NCBI GenBank assembly: GCA_964106645.2
Contig: OZ067040.1
DNA length: 64,000 nt
Source of the DNA: Podarcis pityusensis
Taxonomy: Eukaryota
Strand: one strand, 5' to 3'
In this document: positions 4,414 to 64,000 of the stretch, in pieces
How positions within the stretch are numbered: position 1 is the stretch's first letter
Layout of the letters: every line of letters begins with the position of its first letter
Made by a program: the position numbers and the translations under genes
The notes under the pieces: model-generated
Database searches by the model: none
What the model was told of the DNA's origin: nothing
What the model saw: the letters and a program-made list of their open reading frames with translations, nothing else

Positions 4414-6089
4414 GTCAGTCAAATCATCTGTAACCCTAACCTTTCTCTTCCCTTTTTTAAAAGGACTATATCTAAGTTGCCAAAGTGCTTTTCTTTTTTA
4501 AAATTGAAATTAAACATTTACTTGTTTATACAGCATGACTCCTCCTTTTCATATTTGATTTGCATGGGCATTTTACAAGGCATGTTAAGAGAGGGTTCCC
4601 CTCTCCCAAGTCCAAGAACATTTGAATTTCAGTTAGCATGACCTGTGCTAGAAATGCAGATCCAAGGGGAGTTCTGCCATTTCCGCCCACCTCCCTTTCA
4701 GCACCCCCTTTGCCATACCCCACATCGTTTCTGAGATGCTCTCAGGAGCAGCCTGGGAAGAGAGGGGATGGAGGGGAGAGGTAGGAAAGCTCCATTCTGT
4801 GATCAGAACTCCAGTTACCCTTCTTAAGATCCACATGATTGTTAAGAATTGAGGCTGCAATCTATACAAGCTTAAATCCCAGCCCACTCCATGGGAGTTA
4901 AGCATACACAGAGATCACAGCCTCAGCTTTTATAGGAACTGAAATGAAGTGTCACCTGTCATAAATAAACAGTAAATAAATGGGATGTCTATTTAAAGAA
5001 AACATGGTATCTGTGAAGACATACCCTTTTACCATATTCAAATATATATTCATAGAAAAGATATTGGTGCAAACAGAAGCATAGGGAATGCTTACTTCTA
5101 AGCATGGCAGTTTTACTTGGAAGCCCCTTGGCTTGCAAAACGACAAGGAAAAAACAGTACCATCTGTTGGTTTGGATCCAGAGAAACTGTGAGTGCTGCT
5201 CTGTTCACAGAAGGAGAGGGGTGGCAATTAGGGGTAATTTCCTGCTTCCTCCGATGACCTTGGAATCCAGGAGGAGTGCCAGATTGGCCCCACCAATGCA
5301 TTTACGCTGCATTGACCGCCCTGCTACCTTAGCCTTCCTGGTAAGCAACAGCGACCTGCCTACTGGTCACTGTAAACTGCTTTGAGGTTTTTCCTACAAT
5401 CAAGTAAGGTAAAAAAAATATATGGGAAAAATAAATAAATACTAGAAAGCTAATATAGTGGCTCATCCCCAACCAGTGAGCCACTTCTGGCTCTGGAAGA
5501 GATGGTCTTTGAAGGTGCAGATAGAAACCTAATAGGAGCCTTATTTGGATTATCAGCCCTTCTACAAATAGAAAGCCACCTTCCATTTGAGAAAGAGCCA
5601 CTCTGAATCCAAATCATTATATTTTCATTTTGGATCTTTACTTAGAGAGGTTTTGCATACAGAACACATGATTGCTTGGCTGAAAACTTGTTTGAATTAT
5701 CACATTTCTTGGTTTACAGTTATGTGGTGATTATTTTTTTTTACAACCAGCCTTGTCTGAGCCTAATTTTGGTTTGGTTTTATTAGACAACAATTAAGTG
5801 GTCAAATAGGATATGTACATGGATGTTTTAACAATATTTCCATAAGAAACTGGGAATCATGGACATCATGATGAAATAGCTGTTAGAAGATGTTGCTTGG
5901 TAAAGCGCTATAACATTATTGTGTTGTTGTACCTCCCTCTTCAGAAAACCCCAACATAATTTATCTGCCTGAGGAAGCCACATCAAATTCTAGCTTGTGT
6001 TTGACTATGGACAATTTTTACACTTTGTTATCTTAACAATATTTATATGTTACTGAATAACAAATAAAAAGTACAGCAGAATCGGTATA

Positions 6090-6331
6090 CAGTGGTACCT
6101 CGGGTTACATACGCTTCAGGTTACATACGCTTCAGGTTACAGACTCCGCTAACCCAGAAATAGTGCTTCAGGTTAAGAACTTTGCTTCAGGATGAGAAAA
6201 GAAATCGTGCGGCAGCGGCGCAGCGGCAACTGGAGGCCCCATTAGCTAAAGTGGTGCTTCAGGTTAAGAACAGTTTCAGGTTAAGAACGGACCTCCAGAA
6301 CAAATTAAGTACTTAAACTGAGGTACCACTG
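6090..6331 (+). mobile_element. Tc1/mariner-pogo(Tigger)-like MITE, family A, copy 1
   Basis: TIR CAGTGGTACCTC...GAGGTACCACTG, TA on both sides, repeated internal GCTTCAGGTTA motif; 5 copies in the window. Confidence 0.9.
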
Positions 6332-7267
6332 TAATGGGAGAAGGGGAAATCTCAGTGACACACACACACAAAAACAAATCACATGAACTTTAGATTTAAC
6401 ACAAAGTTTAAAGAGCCTGGTAAAATAAAAAGGTCTTCACTTGGTCCTGAAAACACTGAAAAGTAGGCAACAGGTGAATGCATTTTTCATCCCTGGGTGC
6501 CCTCATTGAAAAGGCCCTTCCCACCACATCTTACCTGGTGAGAGCATGTGGAGACGGGTCTCTGAGAATGGATAGATAAATGTGGGTGTGTATTATAGCT
6601 TTTTAAAAGCTTGAAATGTACCCTTTTCTGTTTCCTGTCAGCCCCTCAGGAAGTATTCAAATACTACTGCTATGCATTTATGGAGCACTGTAAATCTTTC
6701 AATGGGTTATAACACTAATCAAATACTGCTCTGCAAGCGAGGACCCAAGCACAGTAATATTCACCATAAGGCTTGGTGTACAAAGCAGCTTGCTGACTGA
6801 GTGACACCCATAAACTACTGAAATTTATTTCCCTGATAGCAAATGATCAGTGGCAGTTTCTATTAGTTTGAAAAGAATAAATGTATATTGTATTTATTCA
6901 GTGATACTGATACCGCCGGGGACTATTTTTGCTGTTTCTGCCATTGTCCTCCAGCTTCAGTTTCAAAGCGCACATAGCAGAATAGCTATCAGATCATTGA
7001 TACAAAATGCCATCCTTTGGATAACTCCCCCACCCCACCCCATCTTTATATTACATTCCTTTCCTCACCCGCCTGGCCTCCTCCATTAATGAAAGAAAAC
7101 TTGTGTTTTCACAGGTGGAATCACCATAGGTTCTCTCTTTCATATGTCTCCTAGAGGAATTTTAGAGCTGTTGAATCAGATAGACATTTATTAGAATCCC
7201 ATGAATCAAATGCAACTTAAAAAGAGCTACCAGATACACTATTTTTCTTTTAATTACTATGAATACT

Positions 7268-8983: not shown

Positions 8984-11900
8984 AGGACCAATGAACCTAA
9001 AGTTCTGCAGCGAAATGCTAAAGCAATGTTAAGCCATTACATCTGCACCAGCCCTGGATGGGACCATGATAAAATTTAAATATATGTTAGTTAATATTTA
9101 ATATCTACAAAAGACTAGATAGATAGACAGACAAATATTATGTAAACGGCCAAGTTAAGCAAATGGTTTATAATTAGGTCTGTTTGCAGAATGACATCTT
9201 AAACAGAGATACAGCTTGAAATCATTGACTCATGCTATCATCTGAAATAAGCATAATGGTTGTAAGCTGCTGCAAGAAAAAGTGACCAATAAGTTGAATT
9301 GAACAACAACAATGTTCATAAGAACAACCTCTACTGAGTGAAGCCATTCATAATAAACAATACAAATAAGTTTTTAAATTCAACTGACACTAATTAGTCA
9401 GTCATAAAATGAACAAAAAGTAATATGATTAACAAAGGCAGAGACCAGTCACACGGAGGAGAGATAGGCCAGTGCAGAGAGCTTGTGAATGGTGCTTGTA
9501 GCGCAAGAGGGCCACAATATGCATAAAGAAGTGGCAGCTCATGGACTAGCCCAGTTCCCTGAAGGGCTCCATTTCAAGACTTTCTGCATGGTCAGTTCTA
9601 ATACCTCCCCCTGATTTGAGGCAATTCCCTTCTCCCTCTGCAGCCCTGGAGTCAGATAACACATGGTAGGTCCCCCTCCACCCAACCCTCTGGAGAGGCT
9701 TTTTAGAGGACACAGGGGACTGTGGAGTGGAAGGAGAAGGGAAAGATATGTTGCATGAGCTGCCTTCTGATTGTGCAACGTTGGGTGCAACCTACTTTGT
9801 ATAACATACACAGTATTCCCAATACACCCTTCCCCCACTCATATAGAAAAATAGGAGTCTTTCTGTGCTTGCACTATCAGATAATTGGAGAAATTTTGGC
9901 ATGCTTTGTGTGTATTGTAAACATAAGCAGAAGTAAGCTTTAATAAGTTGTCTGAATAATTTACTTGCTTCATTCTGCAGTTGAAATGCTCATCAGAACA
10001 AAACTACTTGCAGTAGCTGCTTAGTGATCTGTGCAGAATGTGCACAGCTGTATTTCAAAAATCCTTGTATATGCTCAAAAGTATTTAAGTTTATATTATA
10101 TATACTTATCTATGCTCAAAAGTGTATTTATACAAAAGGTTTATAAATCACTGCGTAAAAATAGTGCAGCATATGTGTTTGAAACAAGAAAGAATGATCT
10201 GCATTTTTTTTAATAGATTGTAAAATGCTTTGCAGTATTTCTTTGGTGGGAGTTCTTTCTCCAAAAAAGGAAGTAAATGCTTTGCTTTAAACCCCGTTTG
10301 GCACCAAAGCACATGTGATGTCTTAATATTTGCATTGTTCAGAGTTCTTTATAGTTGTTTTTGCTTGACTTCATTGAAAAATCACTGTGTATCGAGTGTT
10401 CCAGTGAGTGTTAAATTTAAAAATCCTTGCTATCTTATGTCATAACATTCACTCTCTTGCATTTGTAGCTCCATTTCTTTTCATAGTTAAGAAAATACAG
10501 TGCTTACTGAAGCAGTAAAAATGATCCTTCCCTGTTTTGGGGGTCAAATGTTAAATTAATAATGGTCACAAAACAAAACAAAACAAAAATACACAAAAGC
10601 ATGCGCGAGCACACACACACACACACGAGAGATAAAAATAAAACTACTGTACTATAAAATCACCAGTAAAATTATGTAAGCTACAGGGCAAATAACAGCA
10701 GCAGATCAGAACTATCCACAGTTGGGAGGGGGTAGATTGTAGTTCCACACAGACAGCTGGGGGGGCACCATGGAAAATGTCCTGTCCCATATCACCCTCC
10801 TAGCATCCCATTGGGATGAGGCCACAAGAATGGTCTATCCGCCTGACTTCAAAGGATGTGGAGGACAGTATATTGAAAGCCACTATAAAAGTCAAGAGCT
10901 TTTAAACTTGAACTCTTATCTTCTGTTATATAAATACCATTGGTTGTTGTTATTTTTTAAAAGATGTTCAAAGATACTTTTTACTTTTTAATATTTATTT
11001 TCAGTTTACTTTTTAATATTTATTTTCACTTGTGTTTTTAGAAAACTTTGATGTATACTGCTCTGCTGATAATTGAAATATCCTGTTAGACGCCTGCTAA
11101 CAAACATTGCTCTAGCGCCATCTCTGATTATAATTTATAGACTCCAATATAAGCCATTTCAGCAGATTTCCCCCCACTGTGAAATATAGCTAGCACAGGA
11201 AAATTCTTTGTCTCCCACAGGCAAAAAAAATACTAGAGGTCAGTCTTTCTCTCTCTGTTTTTAAGAATTCATAAATCAAATCCAGCAACACTGTCAAAAG
11301 TGCTGCTTCTCATAGCTCACTCCTATCAATTCACAAATAAGAGGGTTCCAATTAGACATGCATGGCAAAAAAGAGTAGTAGCTGTTTCCCCTCCACCTCA
11401 TTTCTGCAATTTATTTTCTCATAAACAAACCGAACATAAGAAAATGCATGGGTGTATCAACTTATATTATTTGAACAAGGCTAGAATAGCGATACCTTGC
11501 AATCGAAAGCCCATGTGGGACAGCTGAGAGGGAGATTTGGAGCTGGAAATGGCAGACTGGGACAGGAATCGTATCCTTTTCTGCCACTCTTTATGTGCTC
11601 CCAAAAAAGTCCCCTCCTAAAGTGGCTTTTCATCTCCCTAAAAGGGCTACTCTTGGGTTACTGTTACACATGTTTGGATGATATCCAATGCTACCAGTCT
11701 AGTTGAAGAATGGCACTTGATCTAGTGGGGGCATCCACTAACATTGGATAAGAGGAGGCAATTTTTGCCAATTTCCCCTTCCTGTTGCAGCCTGTGTCCC
11801 CCCCCCCCCACCTTCCACATTGTTCTGGAGGATTCCTCAACTCTCTGGAGCTGGGGGGGGGGGACAGGGGACCGCAATGGGAAGGGGGAATTGGCAAAAG

Positions 11901-13173
11901 TCACCCCCTCTTCTTTTATGTTAGCTGGTGCCTGTGCTAGAGTAAAAGTTTAATTAAGATCCACCTTTCTGTATAGCATGTAGTTTGGCCTCCATAATAA
12001 CTGAGTTTTCATCTCTTAAAAAACTCCACTCAGAGCTGCTTTTATGGCAGTCGATTTTACTGAATAATTGAGAACCGAAGCCTTTCTATTTGCACCAAGC
12101 CTTCTTGGTCAGGCTGTTCATAGTCTTTTTATATGTCAGTGTGATATTAATCTGGGGCTATGTACTGTAATAAAAGTCCTAAGAAATCACAGTGAACATA
12201 ATGGTCGCATTGGGGTGGGGTGGGAGAATAAACAAACACACCATCTCTGCAGAGTGGGCTCTCTCTGTGCAATGGGGGGGGGGGGCGTGTTCCCGGAATG
12301 GGAGGAGAGTCTTCCTCCTACTTATTTTATTGTTGGAGAAAAGGCAGGCAGAAAAGGGACATTTTTTACCACTCAGCAGCTTGAAGCTGCCTGCGATTTG
12401 AATTAGGGTGCAGCCTTGCGCTGTTGTGATTGATGATTCCGAAACTTGCTGTGTCCTGGATGATTGCACCAAATGATAGAGACATTGATCATTCTGATTC
12501 ACCACTGCCTTCAGTGGTGTGGCATCTGCTGTTATCTCTATGTAGGGCAAGCTGCACTCTCTGAATATACACACCACTTTTCTGTGAGTGAGCAGAGGCT
12601 CTTCCTTTAACAACAGTTTGGTACTTAGCAATAGAAGATCCAGGCTTTAGCTGACTGGATATGGTGACCCTGAAGCGCAGCCAGCAGAGGGAACTGGATC
12701 CAATCAAAAGTGCCCAGCACACACTCTGCAGGCCACTGTGCAGGTGGACAGGGCCCTCAAGGTGCTGGGACTCTGAATGTAGGAGTCAGCACTGAGGAAA
12801 TGCCTGCCTTTTGCGTATGTAAGGCCCATGGTGCTATACCATATGACATTAGGAAAAGAGAAGATTGTTTTAGCCACAATGTTTATGTGTTTATCCACAA
12901 CGATAGGATGGATTCCATATACGTACAGAGCCAATATAGACCTGACATGCAGTCATGGGTATCTTTTTTCAGATTTTTTAAAGGCCAAAAGCAGCTTTAG
13001 GAAGATGTACATTGGAGCAGAGAAATGACTGGCCAGAATGAGCTTAATATTTGCCCATCCTTTCTTTTCAAACTCTACCAGCCCACCTCCAGCTGCTGTT
13101 CTCCCCTTGTGTCCTTGAGGAGATTGCTAGCATATGTTATTCACCTGACAGATAAGTGTACAGAGCTGTCATT

Positions 13174-32333: not shown

Positions 32334-32469
32334 CAGGCTTCCTCAACCTCGGCCCTCCAGATGTTTTGAGACTACAATTCCCATCATCCCTGACCACTGG
32401 TTTTGCTAGCTAGGGATCATGGGAGTTGTAGGCCAAAAACATCTGGAGGGCTGAGGTTGAGGAAGCCTG
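32334..32469. mobile_element. Palindromic hAT MITE, probably nested in an older hAT-like element (~32284-32820)
   Basis: TIR caggcttcctcaacctc / gaggttgaggaagcctg; perfect 8-bp TSD ctctaagc. Confidence 0.88.
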
Positions 32470-47427: not shown

Positions 47428-47580
47428 GGATTTGGAAAACTCCCAATTTGTATGGCAAAAACTCACCTGTCCCTCTCTCACATGCCTGAGAAGAAAGGTG
47501 TTCCCACTGGCTTCATCCTGCCTATTAGTGATGTGAGAGCCAGTATTGGAGCTGGTTTCATTTACCCATTGGTGGGAACG
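47428..47580 (+). CDS. MTHFD1L: MTHFD1L coding exon (~exon 26): [51 protein letters not shown]
   Basis: ttgtcag acceptor, gtgagt donor; 153 nt, phase 0/0; [14 protein letters not shown] and [10 protein letters not shown] motifs. The following intron runs past the window end. Confidence 0.97.
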
Positions 47581-47889
47581 GTGAGTAGGGTCCATTTCAT
47601 TCTCAATCTGTGTCTTAGCTGTTATGCGCTTTGAAGATCTTCCTGGGAGCTCTGTGATATAAAGGAGTACAGAAATTCATAAAATATAAATAACAATACG
47701 ACACCACTTACCAGAAATTGCCTTAACCTGCAAGTTACACCAGTACATTGTAATCTCAACGTATATGGACTAGGATCTAAAAAAGTGTAAATTTTGTTTC
47801 ACAAACCCAAATAGGCTTTTTGACTTCAAATAGCAGTTACCAGATGCTGCTTTTGAAACTGTGGGGAGAGCAATTTCTGATGATGATGG

Positions 47890-48088
47890 TTATTATTATT
47901 ATTATTATTATTATTAATACCCCACCCATCTGGCTGGGTTTCTCCAGCCACTTTGGGTGGCTTCCAGCAAAATATTAAAATACAATAATTCATCAAAGCT
48001 TCCCTAAACAGGGCTGCCTTCAGATGTCTTCTAAAAGTCAGATAGTTGTTTATTTCTTTGACATCTGATGGGAGGGCGTTCCACAGGG
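47890..48088 (-). mobile_element. L2 3' fragment, same subfamily as 920-1375
   Basis: (TAT)n tail, ccatctggctg, LWNALPSDVKEINNYLTFRRHLKAALFRE. Confidence 0.85.
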
Positions 48089-49415
48089 CATATAATAATA
48101 ATTTATTTCCCAAGGATCAGTTGTAAAGGCAAGAATTCAGCTGGGCCAGCTCACAAGGCTTCTTTGTGGGATCCTGTCCATTTCTTTTAGCTTGAGAAAA
48201 CTGCTCACGTAAGCTTTTCATCCTTTACAAAACATTTAGCATATATGTTCCCCTTTCAGACTGATCTTGATTGATTTATTTTTTATACATTTTAATGATA
48301 CTGTTCCTTGGCACTGATTATTTCTAATTGGAAGACCTCTTATGTAGCTGTTCTAGAAATGGAACCCAGGCACCAAGCAAAAACGTAAAAAGAAAGTGCT
48401 CTTGTGGTGTTATCTCATTATCCCAGAGTACAAGCCGGCTTCCTCACATTAGCAACACATTGGGGAGTGACTGAGAGTATCTGACTTATTGTTCTGCATT
48501 ACCAGTGAAAGGGAGCAAGGAAGGAAGTGATTCCTGACTAGATGTGTTTTTGGAGTTCAGGAAATTCTGTCATGAGGACTCTCTGGCCTTGGGGGGGTGC
48601 TTTCGATGTACACGATCAGGAAACATTCCTTTCACCACAAGCACAGTAAATTGTTAACATTTCCGCAGAGGGAGGTAATCCATAATGTGACTTGAGCCCT
48701 TTTGTGCACGCTTGGGAAATGTGTTCATGTTTCGTGGAATGTTATGAGCAAGTTGAAATGCTGAATTACTACTAAGCCTCACTGAAGTCACAGGGATATG
48801 AGCTGGCCAAGTCTAGCCCCTTCCATGCCCACACAATGCACTTTTGGCTGTCAGGCCTGCTTTTATAAGCTAGATGTGAGGAGGAATTAATGATATTCTG
48901 GTTGGCTACACATGCATATTCCTGTAATGCATAAATTTAAAGCAACCTATAATCTTGGAAGTTCCTTTATAATAAACTGTCCTTTATAATAAACAGTACT
49001 TGCTTTACTTCTTCCTGCAGTGGGAATTCTGTGCGCAATGGGGAAGTCTTCTTATGAAAAAAATGTACCAGGCTTTATCAGAGGAAGTAGGCAGTAAAAC
49101 TGGGGGGGGGGGCTTTAATTAACACTGGCATGACTTTTATCTCTTCTCCCTTTGACCCTGATCGAGGCACTACCATATACTCGCAGGTGGACTGTTGAGA
49201 TCATGGCTTGGCTATAGAGAGAACAGGCAGGAAGCCTTGTTGAGTGTGTTTAGGAAACTGGTGAGGTCATTGGTGAGTTATGCTTGGGTGGAGAATCACT
49301 GGATTCTCTAGTGCATGCAAACAGAGTCATCTCCGCCCAAAAGTTATTGCAGCTTTGTATTTTCCCACATTTTCTGTTAATCTGCTTTTGTGATGGTGGT
49401 GTATTCCATACAGTA

Positions 49416-49770
49416 CAGTGGTGCCTCGCAAGACGAAATTAATTCGTTCCGCGAGTTTTGTCGTCTTGCGATTTTTTTCGTCTTGCGAAGCACGGTGTCG
49501 GGAAAGTTTTGGAAAAGCTTCAAAAATCACCAAAGTCTTTAAAAACCTCAAAAAAGGCTACCACACCACGTTCTATGAGTTGCTCCTCGAAGTCAAGTCG
49601 CAACTGTATTAACGGTGTTAAGAAAAAGGAAACAAACTTGCAAGACGTTTCCGTCTTGCGAAGCAAGCCCATAGGGAAAATCGTCTTGCGAAGCAGCTCA
49701 AAAAACAAAAAACCCTTTTGTCTAGCGAGTTTTTTGTCTTGCGAGGCATTCGTCTTGCGAGGTACCACTG
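49416..49770. mobile_element. pogo/Tigger-like MITE, family B
   Basis: TIR CAGTGGTGCCTCGCAAGACGAA / TTCGTCTTGCGAGGTACCACTG, TA TSD, multiple internal CGTCTTGCGA repeats. Confidence 0.9.
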
Positions 49771-52237
49771 TACTTAAGTATGCAACTTTGGCTTACTCTT
49801 GTGACAGCACTCATTAAAAGACAATGCAGGGCTGCATTCTGTATAGGGGCAAGATAAACATTTCACTGTACCAGCTTTTGAAGTCACTCTTATCAAGCCA
49901 GTTTTACATCTCTAGTTGGGAGGAACCCCAGGACAGATTTTGGGTGTGGAGAGGGAGGGGGAAGGTTCCACTGTGCAAGCCAGAGTGTTTGTGATAACAG
50001 GACAGCTTTGTTGCATACAACCCAAATATTTTATCAATAGGGAACCAATAAAATGCATTGCATTAAATTCTTAGTGCAATGAAATGTAGCTGCTTAAACT
50101 GTACACTGATGTTCCAGCACTTTAATGCTATTCTGGTTTTATAGTGAAGGTACACAAGGCCATAAACTTGTGGGAGCTAAGTAAGTCTGGTCAATGTTTG
50201 GATATCTGACTTTGGTTACCTAATGGAAGAAAGGCAAACTATAAATGTAATTAAAATTTTAAAAATAACTAAATATTAGGAGGCTGTTCATTGTACCCTA
50301 CTTAGTCATGTTTTACTGACAGAAAAGGGCAAGGAATGGTTTTTTTAAAAAATGGTATTTCAGCTATCTATTTTCTCTTCAAATATTATCCATTAATGTT
50401 TACTGATGCATCAGTTTAGAATAGATTGTTTATTAGCCAAAGTATTAACTTTATTTGTTAAAACAGGAGAGAGAATCTGAGCACCTGCTGGTTAAAATGT
50501 TTCTATGTAATAATCTAAGGAGTGGAAAAGATTGCACCTTTTTGTTGCAAGTTTACTTAAGGGTTTCTCTGTTAAAGATCTTTCTTTTCAAAGCATGCCA
50601 CCAAACATCTATATAGTGCAGAATACCAGGAGGACCCAGAGGTGACAAAGTCCCTTGCTTACCAGCCATGCAGTTTAAGTGCACACTCCACTGCCTACAC
50701 TTTAATGCAAAAGACTGGCTCGGTAGTACACTGTGTATTGAATTCAACATAGCGCTAAGGTGATTGTTCAGTCAGGCAAGCATAACCCAACTGTTCTTGG
50801 GGTTCTCCTGACCCTCCACAGCAGATTTGGGAAGTGGGGGAGGGAGGGGGGCAAGTCCTGCTGTGCTAGGGGGGACTGTTGCGCTGGCTTCTACTAGTGC
50901 AATGATTTAGTTGAATATAGCCCTATGTTTTCACTATCGCTTTCTCAGTGTGCAATCTGATCAGATATCTCAACTTGCTTCCATGCTGCTTGCCCCAAAG
51001 TTGGTAACTGAGAACACATTGCTATAATGAGTGTGTGTGTCATTATTTTCCTCTTGAAAACTTGTCAGCTGAAAAACGTGCTCTGAATGACAAGATGTTC
51101 ATTTGTGCACTTGAGAGAATTGGAAAAATTGAGGGGGAATTCTATAATTGGAGAAGTTGTATCGTTAGTTGTGTTTGGATGTGTGAAAACTTTCTCATAA
51201 TAACCTTAAGCACAATGGTAAAGTAGGCTTTATTTCAGTATAATTGCATTATAAAGGTCATTTGCACTGAGTCCAATAGGAAAACAGTATTCTCATTTCC
51301 TGCTTTACATTCCAGACTACTTTCAGTTGATTCTGACAATTGGTTCTAATTATATAATGTGTTAGGGTAGCATACATGTTTATTATTTAATCGCCATGTG
51401 TACTGTACTATTCAGTGCAATATTTTTGCATATGTTGGGCTTTATTATACTGTATTGGTGTAGTAGATGGGAAAAAGTCCCACAGCTAGCTAGCAGCACT
51501 TTATAATATAATAACAATGCTTCCCACCCCCCACCCCGTAGCTGTTTTGGCAGCTGGTGGTAGTTTAATTTTGATAAGTTTGACATAAAGAATGGAATGT
51601 GTTCATTTTTGGAGGCCAGAAATATCAGAGGGAAAGTTTAAGGGGAAATGAGACAATGACACACTCCGATTTTGGGCACTGAAGTTTTGTTCATTCTCTC
51701 CTCCAGAACATTTTAAAATTCTTATTTACTGATGTGCAATGTACAATGTCTGTGGCAGCATGGGCTGCTCTGTTATTTGCAGTGCAAAAGCAACTTTGAA
51801 CCAGAATTGCAGTGGAATTCGTTGACTATCCACAAGAATATGTCTAAATTAGAATGGGAGGAAGCCATCATGAGGAAGTAACAATATAGGCGGGGGAAGC
51901 ATACTTTTAACATACTTGCCCTTTTAGAAAACCTGGCACCTTCATTATATACCTTTAGGCACTGGGCAAAAACTTTTCCTTTATAACCAGGCCTTTGGCC
52001 TTGAACTATCTGTGGCCTTTTAGAAGTGGGTGGGATGATGCTTTTAATGTACCTTTCTTGGTTTTCATGTATCTGTGGGATTGGGGGGCATTGTTTGCTT
52101 GTAAGTTGCTTTGGGTTGTCTTGAGCAAGAAAAAATGACTAACAAATGTAGTAATAATAATAATAATAATCCATCCTAATAGACCAGCCTCCACTGGTGT
52201 ATATACTATTTTGCTATATACTATTTTGCCAGTTAAT

Positions 52238-52593
52238 GGGACGCGGGTGGCGCTGTGGGTAAAAGCCTCAGCGCCTGGGACTTGCCGATCGAAAGGTTGG
52301 CGGTTTGAATCCCCATGGCGGGGTGCGCTCCCGTCGCTCGGTCCCAGCGCCTGCCAACCTAGCAGTTCGAAAGCACCCCCGGGTGCAAGTAGATAAACAG
52401 GGACCGCTTACTAGCGGGAAGGTAAACGGCGTTCCGTGTGCTGCGCTGGCTCGCCAGATGCAGCTTGTCACGCTGGCCACGTGACCCGGAAGTGTCTGCG
52501 GACAGCGCTGGCTCCCAGCCTCTAGAGTGAGATGAGCACACAACCCTAGAGTCTGTCAAGACTGGCCCGTACGGGCAGGGGTACCTTTACCTT
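52238..52593 (+). mobile_element. Full-length Sauria SINE
   Basis: GGGACGCGGGTGGCGCTGTGGGT head, (ACCTTT)n tail, 15-bp TSD tattttgccagttaa (52222-52236 / 52594-52608); CpGs retained. Confidence 0.93.
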
Positions 52594-52643
52594 TATTTTG
52601 CCAGTTAACCAATCCTAGCTGAATCATTTCCAAAGCTTCTCAT

Positions 52644-53102
52644 CAGTGGCGTAGCGTGGGGGGGTGCAGGGGGGGCCGGCCGCACCAGGCGCAACATCTG
52701 GGGGGGGCGCTCGCACTCGCAGCTCTCTGCCCCTACCTGGCTCACTCACTCTCTCTCACTGCAGTGCTGGCTGTGCGAATCCGATCCGAGCCGCTGGGTC
52801 GCCGCCCACTGTGGAGGGGGTGGGTGCCAGGCGTGCGGTGCGGAGAGAGAGCGAGGGACTATCTGGGGGAGGGACAGTGCAGCGGTCGCCCAGCGCAGCG
52901 CTGAGCACGGGAGAGAACCACACCAGACCAGACCAGGCAGCAGCAAGAAGAAGCTGGCAGCGGCGGCAGGTTAGGGGTTAGGGGGCGCAAATTACTTGCC
53001 TTGCCCCAGGTTAGGGGGCGCAAATTACTTGCCTTGCCCCGGGTTAGGGGGCGCAAATTACTTGCCTTGCCCCGGGTGCTGACAACCCACGCTACGCCGC
53101 TG
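52644..53102. mobile_element. GC-rich hAT MITE with internal 33-bp x3 tandem repeat
   Basis: 17-bp TIR (16/17) cagtggcgtagcgtggg; perfect 8-bp TSD cttctcat. Confidence 0.92.
52976..53074. repeat. 33-bp tandem repeat x3
   Basis: ggttagggggcgcaaattacttgccttgcccc(a/g) x3. Confidence 0.95.
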
Positions 53103-53531
53103 CTTCTCATACCCATGAGGTCTGGCTGCTTTATTATACTGATCATATCTTATTACTTGTTCTCCATTCTCTTACAGCCAGGAAAACTGTCAGCTCACAT
53201 TCCTTATCTAATCCATTGCTAGAAAGTTTTGGCATGCCTTTGTACTGATGTGAAGGCTTTCCTTTCCTCAGGAGAGTCCCTCTTCTTGCTTTTTTCATTA
53301 CTAGCCAGCCATCTTTGCTCTTATTCAGTTCACTCAGAAAGGAATGCAAGGAGGGAGTATTACAAAGTGGAAAGGGGCTAATTTCAGAGTTTCATGGAAC
53401 TATCTGAAAAATAAATGCCTGTAGGAAGAAAATAAAATGTTAACCCTGGTTTATCATTTCCCACTTTAATATATAAAAATAAAAAAAAATCCTTCCAGTA
53501 GCACCTTTAAGACCAACTAAGTTAGTTCTTG

Positions 53532-53569
53532 GTATGAGCTTTCGTGTGCAAGTACACTTCTTCAGATAC
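53532..53569 (-). ncRNA. Minimal hammerhead motif, antisense copy
   Basis: Exact reverse complement of 53654-53691. Confidence 0.7.
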
Positions 53570-53653
53570 ACTGAAACAGAAGTTGCCAGATCCTTCTATA
53601 TAGTGATTATAGTGATTCACTATATAGAAGGATCTGGCAACTTCTGTTTCAGT

Positions 53654-53691
53654 GTATCTGAAGAAGTGTACTTGCACACGAAAGCTCATAC
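53654..53691 (+). ncRNA. Minimal type I hammerhead ribozyme motif (Penelope-associated)
   Basis: gtat-CTGAAGA-a-gtgt(acttgc)acac-GAAA-gc-TC-atac: stem I gtat/atac, stem II gtgt/acac, palindromic AGCT in place of stem III. Confidence 0.7.
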
Positions 53692-56146
53692 CAAGAACTA
53701 ACTTAGTTGGTCTTAAAGGTGCTACTGGAAGAATTTTTTTTTATTTTGACTATGTCAGACCAACACGGCTACCTATCTGTAACTAATATATAAAAGTGAT
53801 TCTAATTCTGTTGTGCGGTAAGGTATTAGAACTTGTAGACCGTGGAGCTCCTGCTTCCATGTGGAGGTGCTTTTTGCTTGCACACCGTTGTGCTAGTTGT
53901 CTGTCACTATGACTGGACCAGGGCACAAATATTTTGCATATACTTGCTTAATTGTTGAACACTTTTCTGCCTTAAGTACTCTAAGCACAACTGCTTTCAG
54001 TAGATTAGGGCTTCATCTTTTAGTTTTTTGACTGCTTCTTAAAGAGTGTCAGCAGCTGGGAAAAGTAACCCAGCAGAATGAAGGAAAAACTATTCTGCTG
54101 CGCCTCAAATTTTTTATGAATTCCAGATAAGTTTACAATCATTATGAGATCTCTTCACTTTGTCAGAGTTCACTGATCATCTGGAAACTCTGCTTTCTTA
54201 CGGTTTGAAGGCAGCTTTTTAGAGGGAAGAAACTGATGACAGAAATGATGCAACATATAGTCTGATATATTTTCAAAGATGTTGAGGTGCTATCAGCACA
54301 CATCTTGGGTAGCTGTTTGAATGAGAATTTGGAAGATCATTTGGTGGCTTCGAAAATCTGATTGAACTAATGCTATATTTTGGCTCTGAAACTTGTCCTA
54401 TTCATCATTTGAACACAAGCGTGATCAAAGCAAAAAGCTCTATTTCAAAACATTTTATATGTAACCATGATCTTCACTTTCATCACAACCAAACCAATTT
54501 AGTTCAGTAGCAGTTCTTTTGGGGGCGAGTGGAGGGGACCCATCTGTTTTAAATATTGATAACTAGATCAGGCATTGAGGGTCAGCATAGTCTATCATCT
54601 GCTTACTCCTATATCTTGGCTCACCAAGTTTAATCTTATGACCATGTTATGACATGCACAGATTACACAACCTCAAAACAATGGGGAGTTTCAGTTTGGT
54701 GAAAGGGTGAAACCATTTCTAAATATATTGGAAGTTGTCAGCACCACTAAGCTTACTCCTTTCCTTTGGATGCCAGACAGGGCATGGAAAGAAGGAAATT
54801 AAAGGACAGCAACTTCCTACATTTACCAAACCAACTGCTCACTACTGTTTATCCTGTTAGCCGCTCCAAGACTCCCCATGGCAACAACACTGGTGGCAAA
54901 TTTGCCACAAGGATAGTGACACGTCTAGATAGGCAGGTTTGTAGCCACTGCTGCTGTTAAATCACTGATCAATCTGTTGTCTTGTGCATTCAGTCTCAAC
55001 TCATCCCCAGTTGCTGCCTGACAGGTCAGGCTCTGCTTCATGTGCAGTGAATGTGTATTTTTGCCAGCTTGCTGCTGTTTCTACTCACTGCCACAATCCT
55101 TTTCTCCTTGCTGCAGCCAGACTTACAGTTGACCATCCAGCAATGGTTTTTGTAAGACTTTACACTTCGTTACCCAGAGGGAAAGCGTGAGCAAACACCA
55201 CGGAGCAGCCACAGAAGGCTGGCAAAAATCACTGCTGGGTGGTTGAATGACAAGTCAATTGAGTCTGTTTGAAGGAAGGAGACTGGGGTGGTGGCAGCTG
55301 TTAATACTCTGCTTTGACTAGTCCACCCTCCCCCTCTAGGCAGTGAGAGGGGACGGGGGTGTCACATTTTAAGGTTCGCAGAGTGTGTCTTGCTTGAGTG
55401 CCCTAGCTTTTCAGGGTTAATTATGAGAGTGTACTTGTTGTTTGTCATTTTCCATTGTAATCCCTTAATCTCCAACAAATGACCCCCCCCTCTCTCTCTC
55501 TCTATATATATATATATGTCAGAATGAAAGTTCTAAAGGCTGACACAGTCCAGATGACATCCCAATATGGGGTCCATAAGAATTGTAATGAAGCTGTAGC
55601 TGTACTTTACAGTTCTTTCAATGGTGTTTTTTAAAACCAAAAAAAACCCCTTACAGTGATCTTGGGGGGAGTCTGAAGAGAAGATGTATTTGCAAATGTA
55701 GTAGAAACGAGGGAGAATGAGTGAGTTGTGCTTATCTTTGCACTGGACATAGGAAGATGGGCTTCCGGGAGACTCACACTAAAGTACCAGTCATTGCAGG
55801 CCATTAAATTCGGTGAGTTTCCATTATTAATACTTATCTCTTATTCAGCTGATCACATTATTACAGGTATCTGACATAGTCTGTAAAATGTTTTGGGTAT
55901 CAATCATTAAATCAGATCATTTTATCTATGCTGTGCCTACAGATGTTGGCGTAGAGGCAAACCAGATCACGTTTCCTTCCTTTTTTGAGAGCATAAAGCC
56001 AAGAAGGAAGGGAGAGTCTCTTTAAACACTGATGTGGGTGAGAGGTGGTCTGACCTCAAAAGCAATTTCACCTGGCCCTTTATGACGCTAACATATTTTA
56101 ATTAATCAATGCTAAAAAGAATTTCCAGTGTTTCACTTGTACAGAA

Positions 56147-56336
56147 AAGGGAAAGAGCTTTAAGTTGGTGGTTGACCACCTGCTTTGCACACAGGTGCCA
56201 GGGTCAGTCCACAGCATCTCCAGGTGAGGCAGGGAATATCCTGTCTGATACCCTGAAGAGCTGCTGCCATCAGCATAGACAATACTGAGTTGGATGCATC
56301 CGTGGTTGGACTCAGTATAAGACAGCTTCCTTATAT
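56147..56336 (+). mobile_element. tRNA-derived squamate SINE (same family as 27554), diverged
   Basis: ctgctttgcac...cagcatctccagg...gacaatactgag...tcagtataagacagcttcct. Confidence 0.72.
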
Positions 56337-58447
56337 TTCAGTCATACTTTCTTTCCCTACCCTTCAGGGCCTATGCATCTAACCAAATGTTCCTCCACTG
56401 CCCACTTTGCAATCACCATGTGCCTGGGATCCATAAAGAATGTTTTCTGTTGAAGCATACATTAAACACCCACACAGCTTCCTCACCTTACTGAACAGTA
56501 AGTTGGAAACCTAGGTGGCAGGCTAACTGATCCAGGGTGAGAGACTGGGAGAAGAAGTAGGTCCCCAGCTGGGAGATGGGAGGGTCTAACTCTCTGCATG
56601 CAGATAAATGACAGGATATATTTGCTATAAATATGGTATATGCCTTATAGGTATCCCGGCCCCCCTTTCTCTCCTTTCTGTTTTCTCTGGTTTTTTTATT
56701 TTGGCTTTTTAATATTCTTGTTCTGTAAACTAGTTTGATTCTTATGTATTTTATGTCAAAAAAATTCAATAAAAATATTCATAAAAAAGAAAAAGAAACT
56801 TAATGGTGGGGCCATTGGAATTTGGTGCTTGGAATTTGGAAGCATTTGTTTATCAGGAATATCTCCTTAGAGAAACGAAAGGAAGGAGCTGTAAGTGCAT
56901 TAGAAATATTTTTTAAAACCCATGCTCTAAAGTTATCCAGAATGCAGGAATGCACCTCCTGAAAAGCAAAACAAAGCACAACAGATCAAAGGTGAATTTT
57001 AGTTGTGAAAGACTTGAGTCATGGGATACTTGAAGGAGATATAATTGAATGTTTATAACATTTATGTACTAGATCACATTCAGATTTGTCAGTTGATTTT
57101 CATTTCCGTGAAATGTCAGATGGTGTTTTTGTGCTCAGTTCTGGTCATGACACTTAAAAAAAAAAAAGACTAAAGTGGCTTTGGAAGAGAGCAAGGAAAA
57201 GGAGGAGGCAATTGGAATGCAAGGCATGCATGAAGATTATGACAACAGGTATGTTTAGGCTAGAAGAAAGAACGTTAAAAGTGAACAACAACCAGAAAAC
57301 CTAAAATTCTGTATTAGAAGTACCTAAAGTATTATCTCATTTGGTTCCTTGGTTTGCTCTAAAACCTCTTAATGATGCATTTGTTTGTGTTTGGCCTTTG
57401 CAAGATGACTGTTGCAGAATGTTAATTCTCTACCATAATATCATTTTCCTGGCTTGGTAGCCAAATGACCTCCTAACATATTTTAGACTTCCTGCTTTAG
57501 CTGTAATTCAGTTTACTTCTCTATCTTTAGCGAGTTACTCCTCATGATTTGCTTTTCTGCTTTTTACTGTAGTTGGCAAAGAAAAACAATCAATGTGTCA
57601 CATGGCACTGCTTAAGATGTAATCCTTCAGATATAAACAGAATAGAAAAGTAACTCCAGGTAATCTATCTCAGTAATTCAAGTAAGTAGCTAGCTTACGT
57701 TATACACTGTATAAAATTGATGCCACTACTGCTGCTACTACTAATGATAATAATAAATAAGAGAACAAACAATACATATTTAGAAAGGACATGTGTGTGT
57801 GTGTCTTTTTAAAAGTTCAACATATTATTAAATACAGTGTTATTAAAGGAGAAAGAAATGGACAGCTGTACAAATAACTTACATTTTACTAGTTGGCCAT
57901 TTTAGTCCCTAAATGTTGATTAATCATTTAAATCTGATAAATACCATAAATATGTTTTTTGAAATGCAGCAGGTGCTGCTACAGTAGACTGCCTTGCCGT
58001 ACACTTTCAGGTATCCAGAGATTGACCTGAGCAATTAATGATCAAGTTGCATTCTCACATGATACAAGCTCCCACTGATGCCTTACAGTATCCTCCCTCA
58101 AACATACCAATGCAGGATGTGATTTGGAGTGGTTCACAGTGTCAGGGGACTCCTAGTCTTGACTCTGAGATAAGAGTAGATATACCATTGATCTGGTACC
58201 TGACAGCAGAACCCAGATTCCACGTATGAAATCTAACTTTTACCATCAAAATTAGTTCTTCTTGATTTGATAGCATTCGCTGATTGTCTAGTTTGACAAT
58301 GTCACTAACTTACGTTTGAATATCTAAATGTTCAGTTCACTAGTACTAGCTGATACTGTTTTACAATGTGGTTGCCACACCCTATAGTTTTTTGGTTCAG
58401 TCTAGTCTGTAAGTCACCGGCGTGTTCAGTGTTATGAAAGCAGGTTA

Positions 58448-58543
58448 GAAAGGACCAACCCCTTGCAATGCAGGAATCTTTCACCCAATTTTTTCACCCA
58501 CAACCCTGAAATTAAGTCTCATGCTCAACCAACTGAGCTATCC
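58448..58543 (-). mobile_element. tRNA(Lys)-derived SINE (family of 15539)
   Basis: gcaatgcaggaatcttt...gtctcatgctcaaccaactgagcta is the reverse complement of the 15539 element. Confidence 0.7.
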
Positions 58544-58740
58544 CTCAGGTCACAATGTCGCATTAGGATCCTTTTATTCCAACAGGCTTCATGTGTGTGA
58601 AGTATTCCAGTAGTACCCTTGGATAAACCCCATTCATTTCTCTCCCATATACACACTGAGGTGGCTGCCCACGCAGTGCAGCCACAAGCAACAATAAGTT
58701 GTTTTTACAGCTCAGTTTTCTGTTTTATAAAATCAATATA

Positions 58741-58966
58741 CAGTGGTACCTTGGGTTACATACGCTTCAGGGTACATATGCTTCAGGTTACAGACTCCAC
58801 TAACCCAAAAGTAGTACCTCGGGTTAAGAACTTTGCTTCAGGATGAGAACAGAAATTGTGCTCCGGCAGCACGGCAGCAGCAGGAGGCCCCATTAGCTAA
58901 AGTGGTGCTTCAGGCTAAGAACAGTTTCAGGTTAAGAACGGACCTACAGAACCAGAGGTACCACTG
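58741..58966 (+). mobile_element. MITE family A, copy 5
   Basis: CAGTGGTACC TIRs, TA TSD, same orientation as 6090. Confidence 0.9.
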
Positions 58967-59874
58967 TACCTTCTCTTCTCTGTTCTGTTAATCTGACATC
59001 ATTATTTTAAATCATAGTTTTGTTCAACCAAGGTTTGGCATCAGCCTGCCTATAGCCTGAAAAATAAACTTGCAGGAGGCAATTTCAACTTTTATTCCTC
59101 TCCATGTTAGCATAGCCCCTTTCAGAAGCTGGCGTAATGCTAATAGAGAGAAAGCCACGCCACTGGATCCTTCCATGTGGCCCAGGTCTCCTGGCTCCCT
59201 TGGTGGTATGAGGAGGTGCCCTGCTGCCGCTGTTCCTAAATCACAAAGGTAATGTTGAGAAAGGACTTTAAGTGAGGTCAAAGCAGGAACGCGAGAGAGA
59301 ATGTGCTTCGTATTTTTTCTACTATACTATTTTCCTCTGATTGAATAAGATATTCCTTCCATGGGATGCTGCTGTCAAAAGAGTAAGTTAGTTAATTTTT
59401 ATTAGCTTCCATTTAATTGAATTTTGAGAGAGAGCTCTGATTACAAATGCAGTACAGGAAAAACAGAAGAGGAATGCATTACACAGCTATCCAAACAGAT
59501 ATATTAGTTCCAATCTTTCCCCTCCATTGTGCAGGAAATTATAGCTATCTGTTTGGCAAAGGGAGATAAATATACTTATTGGAGCATTAATGTTGACTCA
59601 AGGGGGTATGTGAACCGCCCCCCACAAAAGGATGAATATGGATATAGACTTTAGGTTACACGAGTACAAGTTAACCTTTTCTCTTTCAGAAACATGGTAA
59701 AAAAGCAAAATAAAAACATGCCATTATCTCCATGTTGTTAGCATATAGTAAGAGAAAGTCAAAATGATTTACTGTTTTACTGTGCTAAGCTGTTTCTGCA
59801 CAGGGCACACATTTTTGCATTTCAGTAGTGGTTGTTTTAAATATACAGTACCTCAAATGTAAATCAAATTATAG

Positions 59875-60780
59875 AAAGCTGGATTGTGATTATGGGACCA
59901 AACCAGCCTTGGTTGCCCTAACGTATGGCCTTTATTGGAATAAGCACAGGGGAGTGCAACCCTGTTATTGTTCCTTGTTCTCTCACCAGCTTTTGATAAT
60001 ACTGACTGAGCCAGCTTAGTGAGATGGGTGTTGGAGACAATTAAGCAGTGGTTCCAATACTATTTTCAGGGTCAGTTTCAGAGGACAGCAGTGGGTGATT
60101 TTCTTTTGCCCCCCTGGCTGTGCTGTGAGGTTACATGATGCCGGGTGTCAGTGGTGGGCTGGATAAGGGCCAGTAAACTGATTCTGAATCCTGGTAAGGT
60201 GGAGGCACAATGGATGGATGCTTCCTGTATCAGGATAATTGGACAACTGCCTGCTTTTGAGGTTTGCAGTCTGTGGGTGCTTCTGGGTCTCCTTTGGCTG
60301 ATAAGACAGCGACAGCTGTTTCTCGGCCAAGATAGCCTGACCACTGTTGTCCATGTGCTGGTAACCTCCAGGCTGGATTACTACAATGCACTCTAGGTGG
60401 GTTGCTGCAGCTGGTGCAAAATGCAGTGACTCAACTGCTCACTGCAGCAGGATATTACCACATTACCCTGCTGTTGAGAAAATTGCATTGACTGACAATT
60501 AGCTACTGTTTCTGGTTTTGGTGTATAAAGTCCTTTACAATTTGGGTCCAGGATACCTGAAAGATTGTCTCACTCCTTTCATACCTACTCAGTCTACTCA
60601 GAGGTCTGTTCCACACAACGCAGGAATCATAGCCATGGGAATCCCCTGTCCCTGAATATTAGACAGGTACTCTCTCTGTTGTTTCTTCTGTCTACTGAAG
60701 TTCTTTTTCTTTCACAAAAGAAAGCTGAGATCTTTCCCAGTCCGCATGTGTATTGGAATGGTTTTTAAGATTTTTTCCCA
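59875..60780 (+). mobile_element. Degraded L2 ORF2 fragment
   Basis: GTKPALVAL and LTTVVHVLVTSRLDYYNAL remnants; boundaries approximate. Confidence 0.72.
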
Positions 60781-60949
60781 AGATTTTTTTTAAAAAATAA
60801 TTTTTCATTTTCTAATACACAGAAATAATAATAATTGCCATAAAGGAGAGAGAGAGAGAGCGTGCACTTGTTACTTGCCACCTTCGGCTCCTCTGGGAGG
60901 ATAAAATAGGATAAAAATAATAATTAATAAATGACTAATGTAATGCATT

Positions 60950-61935
60950 TTTTATTTATATTTTTGTTGTTGTTGTTGTTATGCCACCCTATACCCGGAA
61001 GTCTCAGGGCAGTTCACAGAATTAAATCAAAATATAAAACCACAAAATATATAATCATAATAAAAACAACCCAATAACATCCCCCCCAAAAAACCCACAT
61101 TTTAAAAGGGTATAGGATGTCAATCAAATCAACCAAAGGCCTGGTTAAAAGGGAACATTTTTGCCTGGTGCTTAAAGGTGTATAATAAAGGCACCAGGCA
61201 AACTTCCCTGGGGAGAGCATTCCACAGACAGGGAGCCACTGAAGAGAAGGCCCGTTCTTGTGTTGCCACCTTCTGGACCTCTCGAGGAGGAGGCACACAG
61301 AGGACGGCCTCAGAAGGTGATCTCAGGGTCCAGGTAGGTTCATATGGAAAGAGGCGGTCCTTGAGGTATTGCAGTCCTGAGCTGTTTAAGGCTTTTTAGG
61401 TCAAAACCAACACTTTGAATTGGGCCCAGAAACTAATTGGTAGCCAGTGCAGTCGGACTAGGATCGGTGTAATATGCTCAAACCATCTTGCTCTGTTGAG
61501 CAACCTGGCTGCTGAATTCCACACTAGCTGAAGTTTCCAAACCATCTTCAGAAGCAGCCCTATGTATAGTGAATTGTAGTAATCTAACCTTGAGGTTACC
61601 AGCAGGGGCGTACGAATGTGGGGCGGGCCGCCCCAGGTGCTACCCTGGGGGGGTTACAAGATGGCCCACTGCCTCCCCCTCCATCTGTAGAGCAGCCGAG
61701 GGCACGTGCGTGCCGTCCGTACAGGCTGCCGCTCAAGCATCGTCCATATGGGCACCACGCGTGCGCAGCTGGCAATTTGCCCTGCCCCACCGCACCCTGG
61801 GTGCCAGAGAGGCTTCCTCCACCACTGGTTACCAGAGCATAGATATCAATAGTTCAGCTATCCCTATATAGATAGGGGCATAGCTGGGCCACCAGCTGGA
61901 GCTGATGGAAGGCACCCTGGGCCACTGAGGCCACC
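60950..61935 (-). mobile_element. L2 3' fragment containing a nested hAT MITE
   Basis: gagcattccacag (LWNAL), ggtcaaaaccaacactttgaa and aatctaaccttgaggttaccag (VTSRLDY on the minus strand); simple-repeat tail near 60950. Confidence 0.8.
61603..61827. mobile_element. GC-rich hAT MITE nested in L2
   Basis: Perfect 8-bp TSD gttaccag (61595-61602 / 61828-61835); ends caggggcg / ccaccactg. Confidence 0.85.
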
Positions 61936-64000
61936 TAAACAATTCAATGCATAATAAGATGCTCTGTAGCAGATCTCCTTAACAAGAGATTTAGTTTTTA
62001 AATGGCTGTTACAGCTGCAAAAGCAGGAAGTATACAAGGGAAAGGGTTCATCGTACTCAGCCTGTGCTGTCCCTTCTATACCGTATGGCTATTTATCAGA
62101 CTATCTCTTTGGCTCTGCGAAAAGGTGTTGTGCAACAAATCTGTGCAAATCCCAATCTTGACTTTTCCAAGCTGTGCCAATGCTACCTTTCAACTCTGTT
62201 CTCAGAGCCTGATTACCTCATTTGCGAAACTAGCATAAAATACTGTGTGCTAGAAAAAATACTGGTACATTAAAAATTGTGTATTGTGTTTTAGATCATT
62301 GTTCCATTTTGCTTTAAATTCATCTTCCATCTCCTTTAAAACTGGGCTGTTAGGCTCTGCCATACCTCCGGTAACCACAGAAGACACAGGGGGCAGGGGA
62401 AATAAAGGCTTTTAATTATGCTGTAGAGAACCCAGGCACCACTTCAGCTGTGCAGCTGGAACCCCAAACTCTAATAACTAAACCAGCAAATGTGTGTAAC
62501 TCAGATGAAAGGAAACCTTGAAATATGTAATTTAGGCTATTATTTACACAGCATGCCGGTTTTGGTATCTTGACCTCACAATAATAGATCACAATTTTTT
62601 TCTTGTGCCCTGGAGTACCTGATAAAATGATGCCTCCTACCTTCTGGAGGTATTGCATTGGCAAGGATTGCAATTACTTTTACTGTCATAATTTATAAAC
62701 CAATATACAATCAGTGTTATATTTAGTACTATGGAGTTCTAAAATGCATGGGGAGCTTTCATGAATTTTAGAAGTCGCAAGTTGGAATGTGACCCAAACC
62801 ATGGTAGTGGTGGTGGTGTGTAGCTTATGACTCACCCCTTGAATGTTAAGTAAACACAATTTCAAAAATCTGAATACATTCTGCCAATTTCAAATGGCAC
62901 AGAGGAAAGGAGATTGGAAGTAGGAAAATGGCACTCCTCTTGAATCTACCGTTTAAAACAACAGCTTCATACTGTTGTGTTCTGATAGACCTGAATATGA
63001 ACTGAATGTCCTATTTCTATGCTTTGAGTCTCCAGCAAGAATTATCTGGCTTTTATTATTGTTTCTTCTGCATATTAGACTAAGGAATTCAGAGCAACAT
63101 GTTTGTCTCAAGCAACCCTGCGAGGAAGCCTCAGCTTGGGATACACTATCATGCTCTGCTGGGACTTGGTGCTCACCAGGGAAATGATAGAGATTCCCAG
63201 AGTCTCTTCCTGTAAAACCAGGCCCTATCAGGACTCTAGCTACTCCCAATGGACTCTTCTGGCTGAGCTTTGGAAGGTGGTGTTTCAGCTGAGAACCAAA
63301 GTTATCCGAAGAGTGCCAAGGCTTCCCTTCTAGTGGTTCCACCCTCTTGGGTGAGCTGGGTGCAATCTTTTAAGTAGCTCACTTTAGTTGCATGCTCCTG
63401 CATGGCTGTGGAACAGGAGAAGCTATGGGGGAGTCATCCCCAGAGTGGAGGATGCTGGAATATCTGTGTCCTCAGGCAAGGATGGGATAGAAGGGGTTGC
63501 TGTGGGTTCCACCTCCCCACTGAGCAGGGGTTGACTTGTGGGTGTGAATGCAGGGGACATAACATTAACTGGCTCATGACTTCACAGGGGTAGTAGGGAT
63601 TTGAATAATGCCACATTCAAACCCAACATTTTAGCCATCACGCCACACTAACTCTGCTCTTAAATTGACTTTTCCGTTCGAGCTGTATTGCAGCATAAGA
63701 TTTCATGAACTCAGGCCTGCTTCTTCAGATGTGTAAAGTATTATCCTCACTGACTTGATGAGGAGAGGGTTGGGGTATGCAGGGGGTGGGGGATTCTCAT
63801 ACTGACTAACTCTTATTGACTAGCTGTGGAATAAAATCAATTATATTTGGAACTTTGGAAACTAATAGAGGCTTAAGCTTAAACTTGCTCCCAAGTAACC
63901 CCTCCAAGGGTCACATGTTGCAATTCATAGTCATGTAGCAGGGGACTAATTGTAGTAAGGGCATGGATGATCACTCTTTTCATGATATCTGTGTTTAAGG

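Follow-up and report, generated by a model that had tools for sequence, protein, structure and literature searches.

A polymorphic head-to-head insertion of a Penelope-like element, with a minimal hammerhead motif on each strand, in the last coding intron of a Podarcis pityusensis FTHFS gene

Inverted copies of Penelope-like pseudo-LTRs that carry a tail and are bounded by a target-site duplication (TSD) have been described, and self-priming has been proposed as their origin (PMC3846280). For the Penelope-like element of the green anole, in vitro work identified two reverse transcriptase (RT) start sites bracketing the tail, with extension of both target strands, and showed that the hammerhead of this element cleaved only in the presence of the element's protein, uncleaved RNA being the main template (PMC11167929). 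Minimal hammerhead motifs occurring as pairs on opposite strands, 100-700 bp apart, have likewise been noted, as have reptile motifs, and single minimal hammerheads gave no cleavage (PMC4209133). Among endonuclease-positive elements, a CX2-5CxxC linker between the RT and the nuclease characterizes the Neptune and Nematis types (PMC8557442).

Here, we describe one such insertion in a window of 64,000 nucleotides from Podarcis pityusensis (contig OZ067040.1), by which we mean the whole stretch of DNA that was analysed. An earlier note, made from the letters of this stretch, had described a Penelope-like palindrome with a hammerhead motif on both strands inside the MTHFD1L pre-mRNA, and had proposed that the palindrome silences its own ribozyme. 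Both the architecture and the motif are already published, and the locus is an ordinary one, being one young stump among thousands in this genome; a literature search of limited coverage found no paper on "self-silenced" palindromic hammerheads or on the present family. We consider it highly probable that the locus is a recent, polymorphic, 5'-truncated head-to-head Penelope insertion, built by double priming on RNA from one source, in which the hammerhead is an inert passenger that would be masked in the host pre-mRNA only as a by-product.

Parts of the insertion and its site

The 317-bp insert comprises two 131-nt arms with one mismatch (53491 vs 53732), a 10-nt spacer, a 36-nt tail, and a 12-bp TSD, and every element of the palindrome that had been claimed was thus recovered from the sequence. 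The parts of the insert and the host features around it are the following, in window coordinates.

47428-47580, + strand: penultimate coding exon of the host FTHFS-domain gene
47581-64000 (part in the window), + strand: host intron with the insertion, 22,414 bp long, ending ~6 kb past the window end
53467-53478, + strand: left TSD, 12 bp, present as a single copy at the empty sites of X2 and X4
53476-53606, - strand: tail-less arm, an inverted pseudo-LTR copy of parent-unit positions 2828-2957, starting from the T-rich tract
53532-53569, - strand: mirror minimal hammerhead motif, matched by the descriptor
53570-53602, - strand: mirror TATA-like and initiator-like motifs, assigned by arm symmetry
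53607-53616, + strand: central spacer, a junction scar in which the closing bases of the left arm are stuttered, read from the sequence and resembling stutters elsewhere
53617-53747, + strand: tail-bearing arm, a direct pseudo-LTR copy of parent positions 2828-2957
53621-53653, + strand: TATA-like box at 53621-53626, followed 30 nt later by an initiator-like TCAGT whose A is at 53651
53654-53691, + strand: minimal type-I hammerhead motif, host-sense, found with the descriptor from PMC4209133; its cut site is a prediction
53748-53783, + strand: 36-nt tail, with the first ATG of the parent frame (53752-53754) and its first codons
53784-53795, + strand: right TSD, 12 bp, recognized from the direct repeat and the empty sites

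The final AAA of the left TSD overlaps the start of the left arm as a microhomology, and tail position 53755 deviates from the family sequence. No other near-perfect inverted repeat longer than 100 bp occurs within the 64-kb window. Other elements with inverted repeats, located at 49412-49774, 6088-6333, 32334-32469, and 11721-11941, are probably small DNA-transposon derivatives. Upstream of the insert, a 459-bp element at 52644-53102 ends in 17-bp terminal inverted repeats, is bounded by an 8-bp target duplication, and contains three 33-bp repeats, so that it resembles a hAT-type MITE; a GC-rich insertion of ~360 bp at 52222-52608, flanked by 15-bp direct repeats, resembles a lizard SINE.

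FTHFS exons run along the + strand across the window, and the insert resides in the last coding intron of this gene, 5.9 kb downstream of the donor at 47580 and 16.2 kb upstream of the last coding exon. On C1, another FTHFS gene carries dehydrogenase/cyclohydrolase exons matching human MTHFD1; such exons were looked for at the host locus, and none were found there. In MTHFD1L, the dehydrogenase/cyclohydrolase part is divergent. Because the C1 paralogue fits MTHFD1 and no such exon was found at the host locus, the host gene is assigned to MTHFD1L, by exclusion only. In transcripts of this intron, the arms would form a 131-bp hairpin, which would be removed with the intron on splicing. A partial second copy of the host gene, 254 kb upstream (G000:C3:66008612-66064818; L036-L037), ends at a 200-N gap; it is 99.8% identical across the 14.8 kb compared and is likely a falsely duplicated haplotype. 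An empty site within the same assembly was sought in this duplicate, which stops at the gap before the site.

Contigs from X2 (organism A) and X4 (organism C) join 53466 directly to 53784 with one copy of the repeat, which provides empty sites in a second sample of the same species and in one related species, and the TSD is proved because these empty sites hold a single repeat copy. Contigs from X1 (organism A) span the outer junctions on either side and are oriented there as the assembly is; X1 differs from the window at two flank positions and may be the source of the assembly itself. Taken together, the X1 junction contigs and the X2 empty site establish that the 317-bp insertion is polymorphic within species A. 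In X3 (organism B), both flanks are present, and no site-spanning contig occurs among those listed. The recent insertion proposed at first is borne out by these empty sites, but not by the near-identity of the arms, which had been offered as the argument for its age: dating by the arm mismatch was rejected, as the mismatch falls on the main polymorphic site of the family.

Parent element, family, and formation of the mirror arm

The window arm is 96-98% identical to other copies of its family. At L031, we found a parent element in the form of a 2,993-bp tandem unit with an open frame of 951 codons, around which lies an 828-bp direct repeat (the pseudo-LTR) that is 98% identical to the window arm; a second open frame, of the same length, is present at L032. 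The L031 frame contains (i) an RT domain (RVT_1, E 3e-12), (ii) a CX4CXXC linker between the RT and the nuclease, upstream of the GIY-YIG motif, and (iii) a GIY-YIG match (E 2.4e-4) whose 21.8 bits lie just under the curated cut-off of 22.6. Atlas neighbours sharing the domain type of the parent score 0.98. The insert itself combines homology to a tandem-derived pseudo-LTR, an inverted 5'-truncated copy, a tail of 30-40 bp at one end, and a TSD, as Penelope-like insertions do. On sequence grounds, it is a 5'-truncated insertion of a young endonuclease-positive Penelope-like element, and the Penelope origin suggested beforehand now has behind it a parent with an intact RT and GIY-YIG frame and a pseudo-LTR homologous to the arms. 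By the linker criterion of PMC8557442, the parent classifies as Neptune/Nematis type, and Neptune would be preferred over Nematis from the vertebrate host. At L031 6142-6392, 1.2 kb away from the intact parent, there is an older head-to-head stump belonging to a related subfamily; it is 74-84% identical and has a U at the cleavage position.

A 26-mer from the 3' half of the hammerhead has 5,363 exact matches in the genome and none in the control. The shape census covered all 65 insertions that hold the first 100 of these matches (C1, first 29 Mb), and comprised 39 head-to-head insertions, 15 solo arms with a tail, and 11 solo arms without one; the tail was on exactly one arm in 39 of the 39 head-to-head insertions. 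Extrapolating from 39 of 65 insertions per 100 matches to 5,363 matches gives ~2,000 head-to-head pairs genome-wide. A direct repeat of 12-16 bp flanks 40 of the 47 head-to-head pairs listed, with none at 6 of them and one of 7 bp at the last. Short head-to-tail runs of the hammerhead segment occur at L057, L136, L109, and L077, including three 74-bp copies at L057, and could allow a dimer fold that is impossible for the window copy. Two presumed RNA runs from other organisms held family pieces only.

The 5' limits of the arms are clustered, in that 45 of 104 sampled arms start at parent positions 2858-2870, at an initiator-like motif just before the hammerhead; a step in sequencing depth and the commonest joints also fall there. 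Judging from the motifs and these pile-ups, this initiator-like motif, 30 nt after the TATA-like box, is likely the RNA start of the element. Against this, the Drosophila element has a TATA-less internal promoter (PMC2377424). The window arms extend 34 nt beyond the common stop, to 2828, and both keep the TATA-like box; since they pass the putative RNA start and retain this box, the window copy likely came from read-through (tandem) RNA.

Double priming of RNA from one source best fits the junction patterns, as far as we can infer. The nuclease of the element would nick both target strands ~12 bp apart; one 3' end would prime at the end of the RNA tail, while priming by the second would take place 36 nt upstream, at the U-rich tract; both cDNA copies would proceed toward the 5' part of the RNA, and their ends would be joined with a short stutter. 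Most family members stop near the putative RNA start, just before the hammerhead.

The common source of the two arms is suggested by the alleles that they share. A minority allele with 215 matches, against 4,914 for the majority (~4%), was shared by the two arms of 38 loci and confined to a single arm at 3, with 1 locus unresolved, among the first 100 of the 215 matches; 36 of these pairs were judged by eye, while 2 more and the mismatched ones came from a separate check. The window arms themselves carry an allele that has only 7 matches in the genome, and it is in both arms here alone. Both arms would accordingly derive from one source, but a single unchanged RNA molecule does not explain the differences between them: the window mismatch, on the main polymorphic site, has G on the tail-less arm and A on the tail arm, and the same direction was found at L011, L025, and L027, that is, at all 4 mismatched loci, with no reverse case seen; and 14 long-armed pairs (5,222 columns) showed 14 discordant sites, several of them family-polymorphic, vs 22 shared minor alleles. 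A-to-I editing was considered as the cause of the mismatch and not adopted; the direction is the same in 4 of 4, but the tail arm had served to select one of these loci, and the base on the 5' side is a G, which A-to-I editing disfavours.

Fold-back, in which a single cDNA would fold and be copied back toward the target by self-priming, with no second priming on RNA, accounts for the shared alleles, as well as for the agreement in arm length, which is to within 30 nt in 31 of 39 pairs (in 5 of the 11 long ones), and for the window arms, both of which stop at the same base. We nevertheless judge it unlikely. Of the 39 pairs, 22 have a tail-less arm that extends further 5' than its partner (the difference being as large as 447 nt, at L065), 13 show the reverse, and 4 are equal (counted by eye), and because either arm can be the longer, neither contains the other, which argues against a simple fold-back. 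Further, both end types occur alone, at 15 solo arms with and 11 without the tail (n = 65 insertions), the latter being tail-less arms that fold-back leaves unaccounted for, and there are 4 loci whose two arms disagree at a site that is polymorphic in the family. Double priming thus remains the preferred reading.

The hammerhead motif and the host transcript

The descriptor CTGANGA..CGAAA has two matches in the 64-kb window, one per strand and both in the insert, in agreement with the minimal hammerhead first noted on each strand; its minimal, dimer-type architecture also agrees with PMC4209133. The + strand motif has a stem I of 4 bp, a core from 53658, an extra A, a stem II of 4 bp (5 in the family), and a palindromic AGCU where stem III would be; cleavage is predicted after C53687. 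The features of the type-I minimal form are therefore all present, namely the core, G10.1-C11.1, stems I and II, the palindromic remnant of helix III, and an NUH site. In the family variants listed, the catalytic core is kept, and most of the variation is located in loop II or at C17/U17, the compared copies being so nearly identical that they limit a test of compensatory changes; a private change in the window copy removes the fifth pair of stem II. A search with the Rfam hammerhead covariance models, which the earlier note had suggested as a check, gave no match, at E values of up to 10, to either the window or the (non-palindromic) parent repeat, as is expected because the motif is without helix III. 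Rfam microRNA matches, which were below gathering scores and reflect the hairpin only, were rejected.

We looked for a footprint of cleavage in the ends of the family arms, using the 100 matches listed of 102; 98 were scored by eye after 2 were dropped (one internal deletion and one older subfamily). The predicted cut coincides with the ends of 18 of the 98 arms (14 loci), against a mean of 8.2 per position over 12 positions. Arm ends also pile up at positions 2904 (17) and 2894 (13), and short microhomologies can explain all three peaks. An earlier tally of arm ends was similar, and 2 additional loci start exactly at the predicted cut. Genome-wide, the expected number of arms ending at the cut is roughly 40 (18 obtained through a filter that keeps ~42%), vs 5,363 that span it.

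A small but real effect of the hairpin on its host, whether by dsRNA editing or small RNAs or by a cryptic splice acceptor in the tail, seems improbable to us. The duplex is 131 bp long and near-perfect, a U-rich tract precedes the AG at 53757-53758, which ranks ~30th of the 1,504 AGs of the intron, and a donor-like site lies at 53818. However, this rank comes from a crude pyrimidine score, the U-rich tract is itself part of the hairpin arm, the true splice sites are 5.9 kb and 16.2 kb away from the insert, and the insertion is polymorphic, hence under no long selection. At 53734-53823, the U-rich tract, the AG, and the donor-like site would together define a cryptic exon of 59 nt (53759-53817) with an early stop.

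On the reading of a self-silenced ribozyme, the MTHFD1L pre-mRNA would be cleaved by the sense hammerhead if the antisense arm did not prevent it, so that the palindrome would matter for host tolerance of the insertion; we regard this reading as very unlikely. The motif is indeed host-sense inside the intron, and RNAfold, the folding check named at the outset, predicts a whole-insert hairpin (-232.7 kcal/mol) that abolishes the hammerhead; both of its helices have a probability of 0.000 in the whole insert and in nascent chains, and a forced ribozyme fold costs 72 kcal/mol. Masking of the sense ribozyme by the antisense arm is accordingly what folding predicts, but it is not supported as a special self-silencing feature, in view of the 39 of 65 insertions with the same shape and of the misfolding of the lone arm. 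In a lone arm of this copy, the probability of stem I falls from 0.22-0.47 to at most 0.01 with at least 10 upstream bases, and in the family form from 0.31-0.37 to at most 0.04, whereas for an RNA whose 5' end is the initiator the active fold is only 0.8 kcal/mol away at most. Because a lone arm with upstream bases is already predicted to misfold, the second arm would be unnecessary for silencing; nor is the antisense-first order special, because every outward-pointing inverted repeat has its antisense copy first on both strands. Moreover, there is one sense motif per strand, hence no cis dimer; monomers were inactive (PMC4209133) or protein-dependent (PMC11167929); and a masking arm is absent from 26 of the 65 sampled insertions, which are solo arms. 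The weak excess of family ends at the predicted cut (18 of 98, mean 8.2) may reflect occasional cutting in vivo, but it is equalled by other positions (17 and 13 arms) and is explicable by microhomology. From folding models and by analogy, the hammerhead is likely to be idle in every host transcript, whether or not a palindrome is present, and "self-silencing" is likely a by-product of how the stumps form, since the lone arm misfolds and published minimal monomers are inactive or protein-dependent.

That the palindrome is an assembly artefact is scarcely credible: no contig in the 4 runs bridges the hairpin centre, whose central 8 bases are uncovered and are therefore known from the assembly, and the same region holds the likely false duplication 254 kb upstream, but the X1 contigs cross both outer junctions in the correct orientation, the exact TSD is defined by the empty sites, and the same design recurs at many other loci.

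A possible start-gated hammerhead and comparison with described systems

Building on double priming, we tentatively suggest that an RT dimer uses a single uncleaved RNA to prime both strands, from two fixed sites separated by 36 nt, with run-off at the RNA start, and that the hammerhead is start-gated. It would fold only in RNAs beginning at the initiator, 7 nt before the core, and upstream bases would trap it in any read-through or host transcript. If true, start-gating would explain how the host tolerates thousands of intronic copies, ~1% of arms would derive from ribozyme-cut RNA, and the thousands of stumps of the family would record Penelope-like integration. The polymorphic, TATA-keeping copy in MTHFD1L offers a natural with/without pair for testing start-gating, and carriers and non-carriers can be compared for editing, small RNAs, and splicing. 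With its intact parents, very young copies, and polymorphic intronic insertion, the family is a useful data set for Penelope integration, its use lying in the data on the two start sites, the shared source, and the possible start-gated folding.

The motif resembles the minimal hammerheads of animal Penelope-like elements (PMC4209133) in its short stem I, the extra base before G10.1-C11.1, and the palindromic replacement of helix III, whereas its stem II is of 4-5 bp, compared with 7-8 bp in Schistosoma. Non-LTR retrozymes (bioRxiv 10.64898/2026.07.22.740005) are likewise short, non-coding, hammerhead-bearing derivatives of Penelope pseudo-LTRs in vertebrates; however, they are head-to-tail tandem arrays, whereas the present insertion is a single head-to-head pair with a TSD, and identity with a non-LTR retrozyme was rejected on this ground. 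Unlike retrozymes, the window pair was apparently built at its site, as junctions differ between loci.

Poseidon PAc of the green anole (PMC11167929) shares the two RT start sites bracketing the tail, the extension of both target strands, the AT-rich targets, and uncleaved RNA as the main template. In contrast to PAc, the present parent has the CX4CXXC linker, which PMC8557442 gives for Neptune/Nematis and not for Poseidon, its hammerhead lies upstream of the ATG, and its tail spans the start codon, whereas the tail of PAc lies >100 nt into the frame. With described endonuclease-positive insertions (PMC8557442; Pen2a_Av and others, PMC3846280), the present family shares (i) head-to-head pseudo-LTR copies with a TSD, (ii) a 36-nt tail at one end with the first codons, (iii) TATA-like and initiator-like motifs in the repeat, and (iv) a parent with an RT together with a C-terminal GIY-YIG domain. 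It differs from them in that the whole insertion here consists of two stumps only, in that such stumps number in the thousands (by extrapolation), and in the length of the TSD, which is 12-16 bp here vs 8-10 bp in the rotifer examples.
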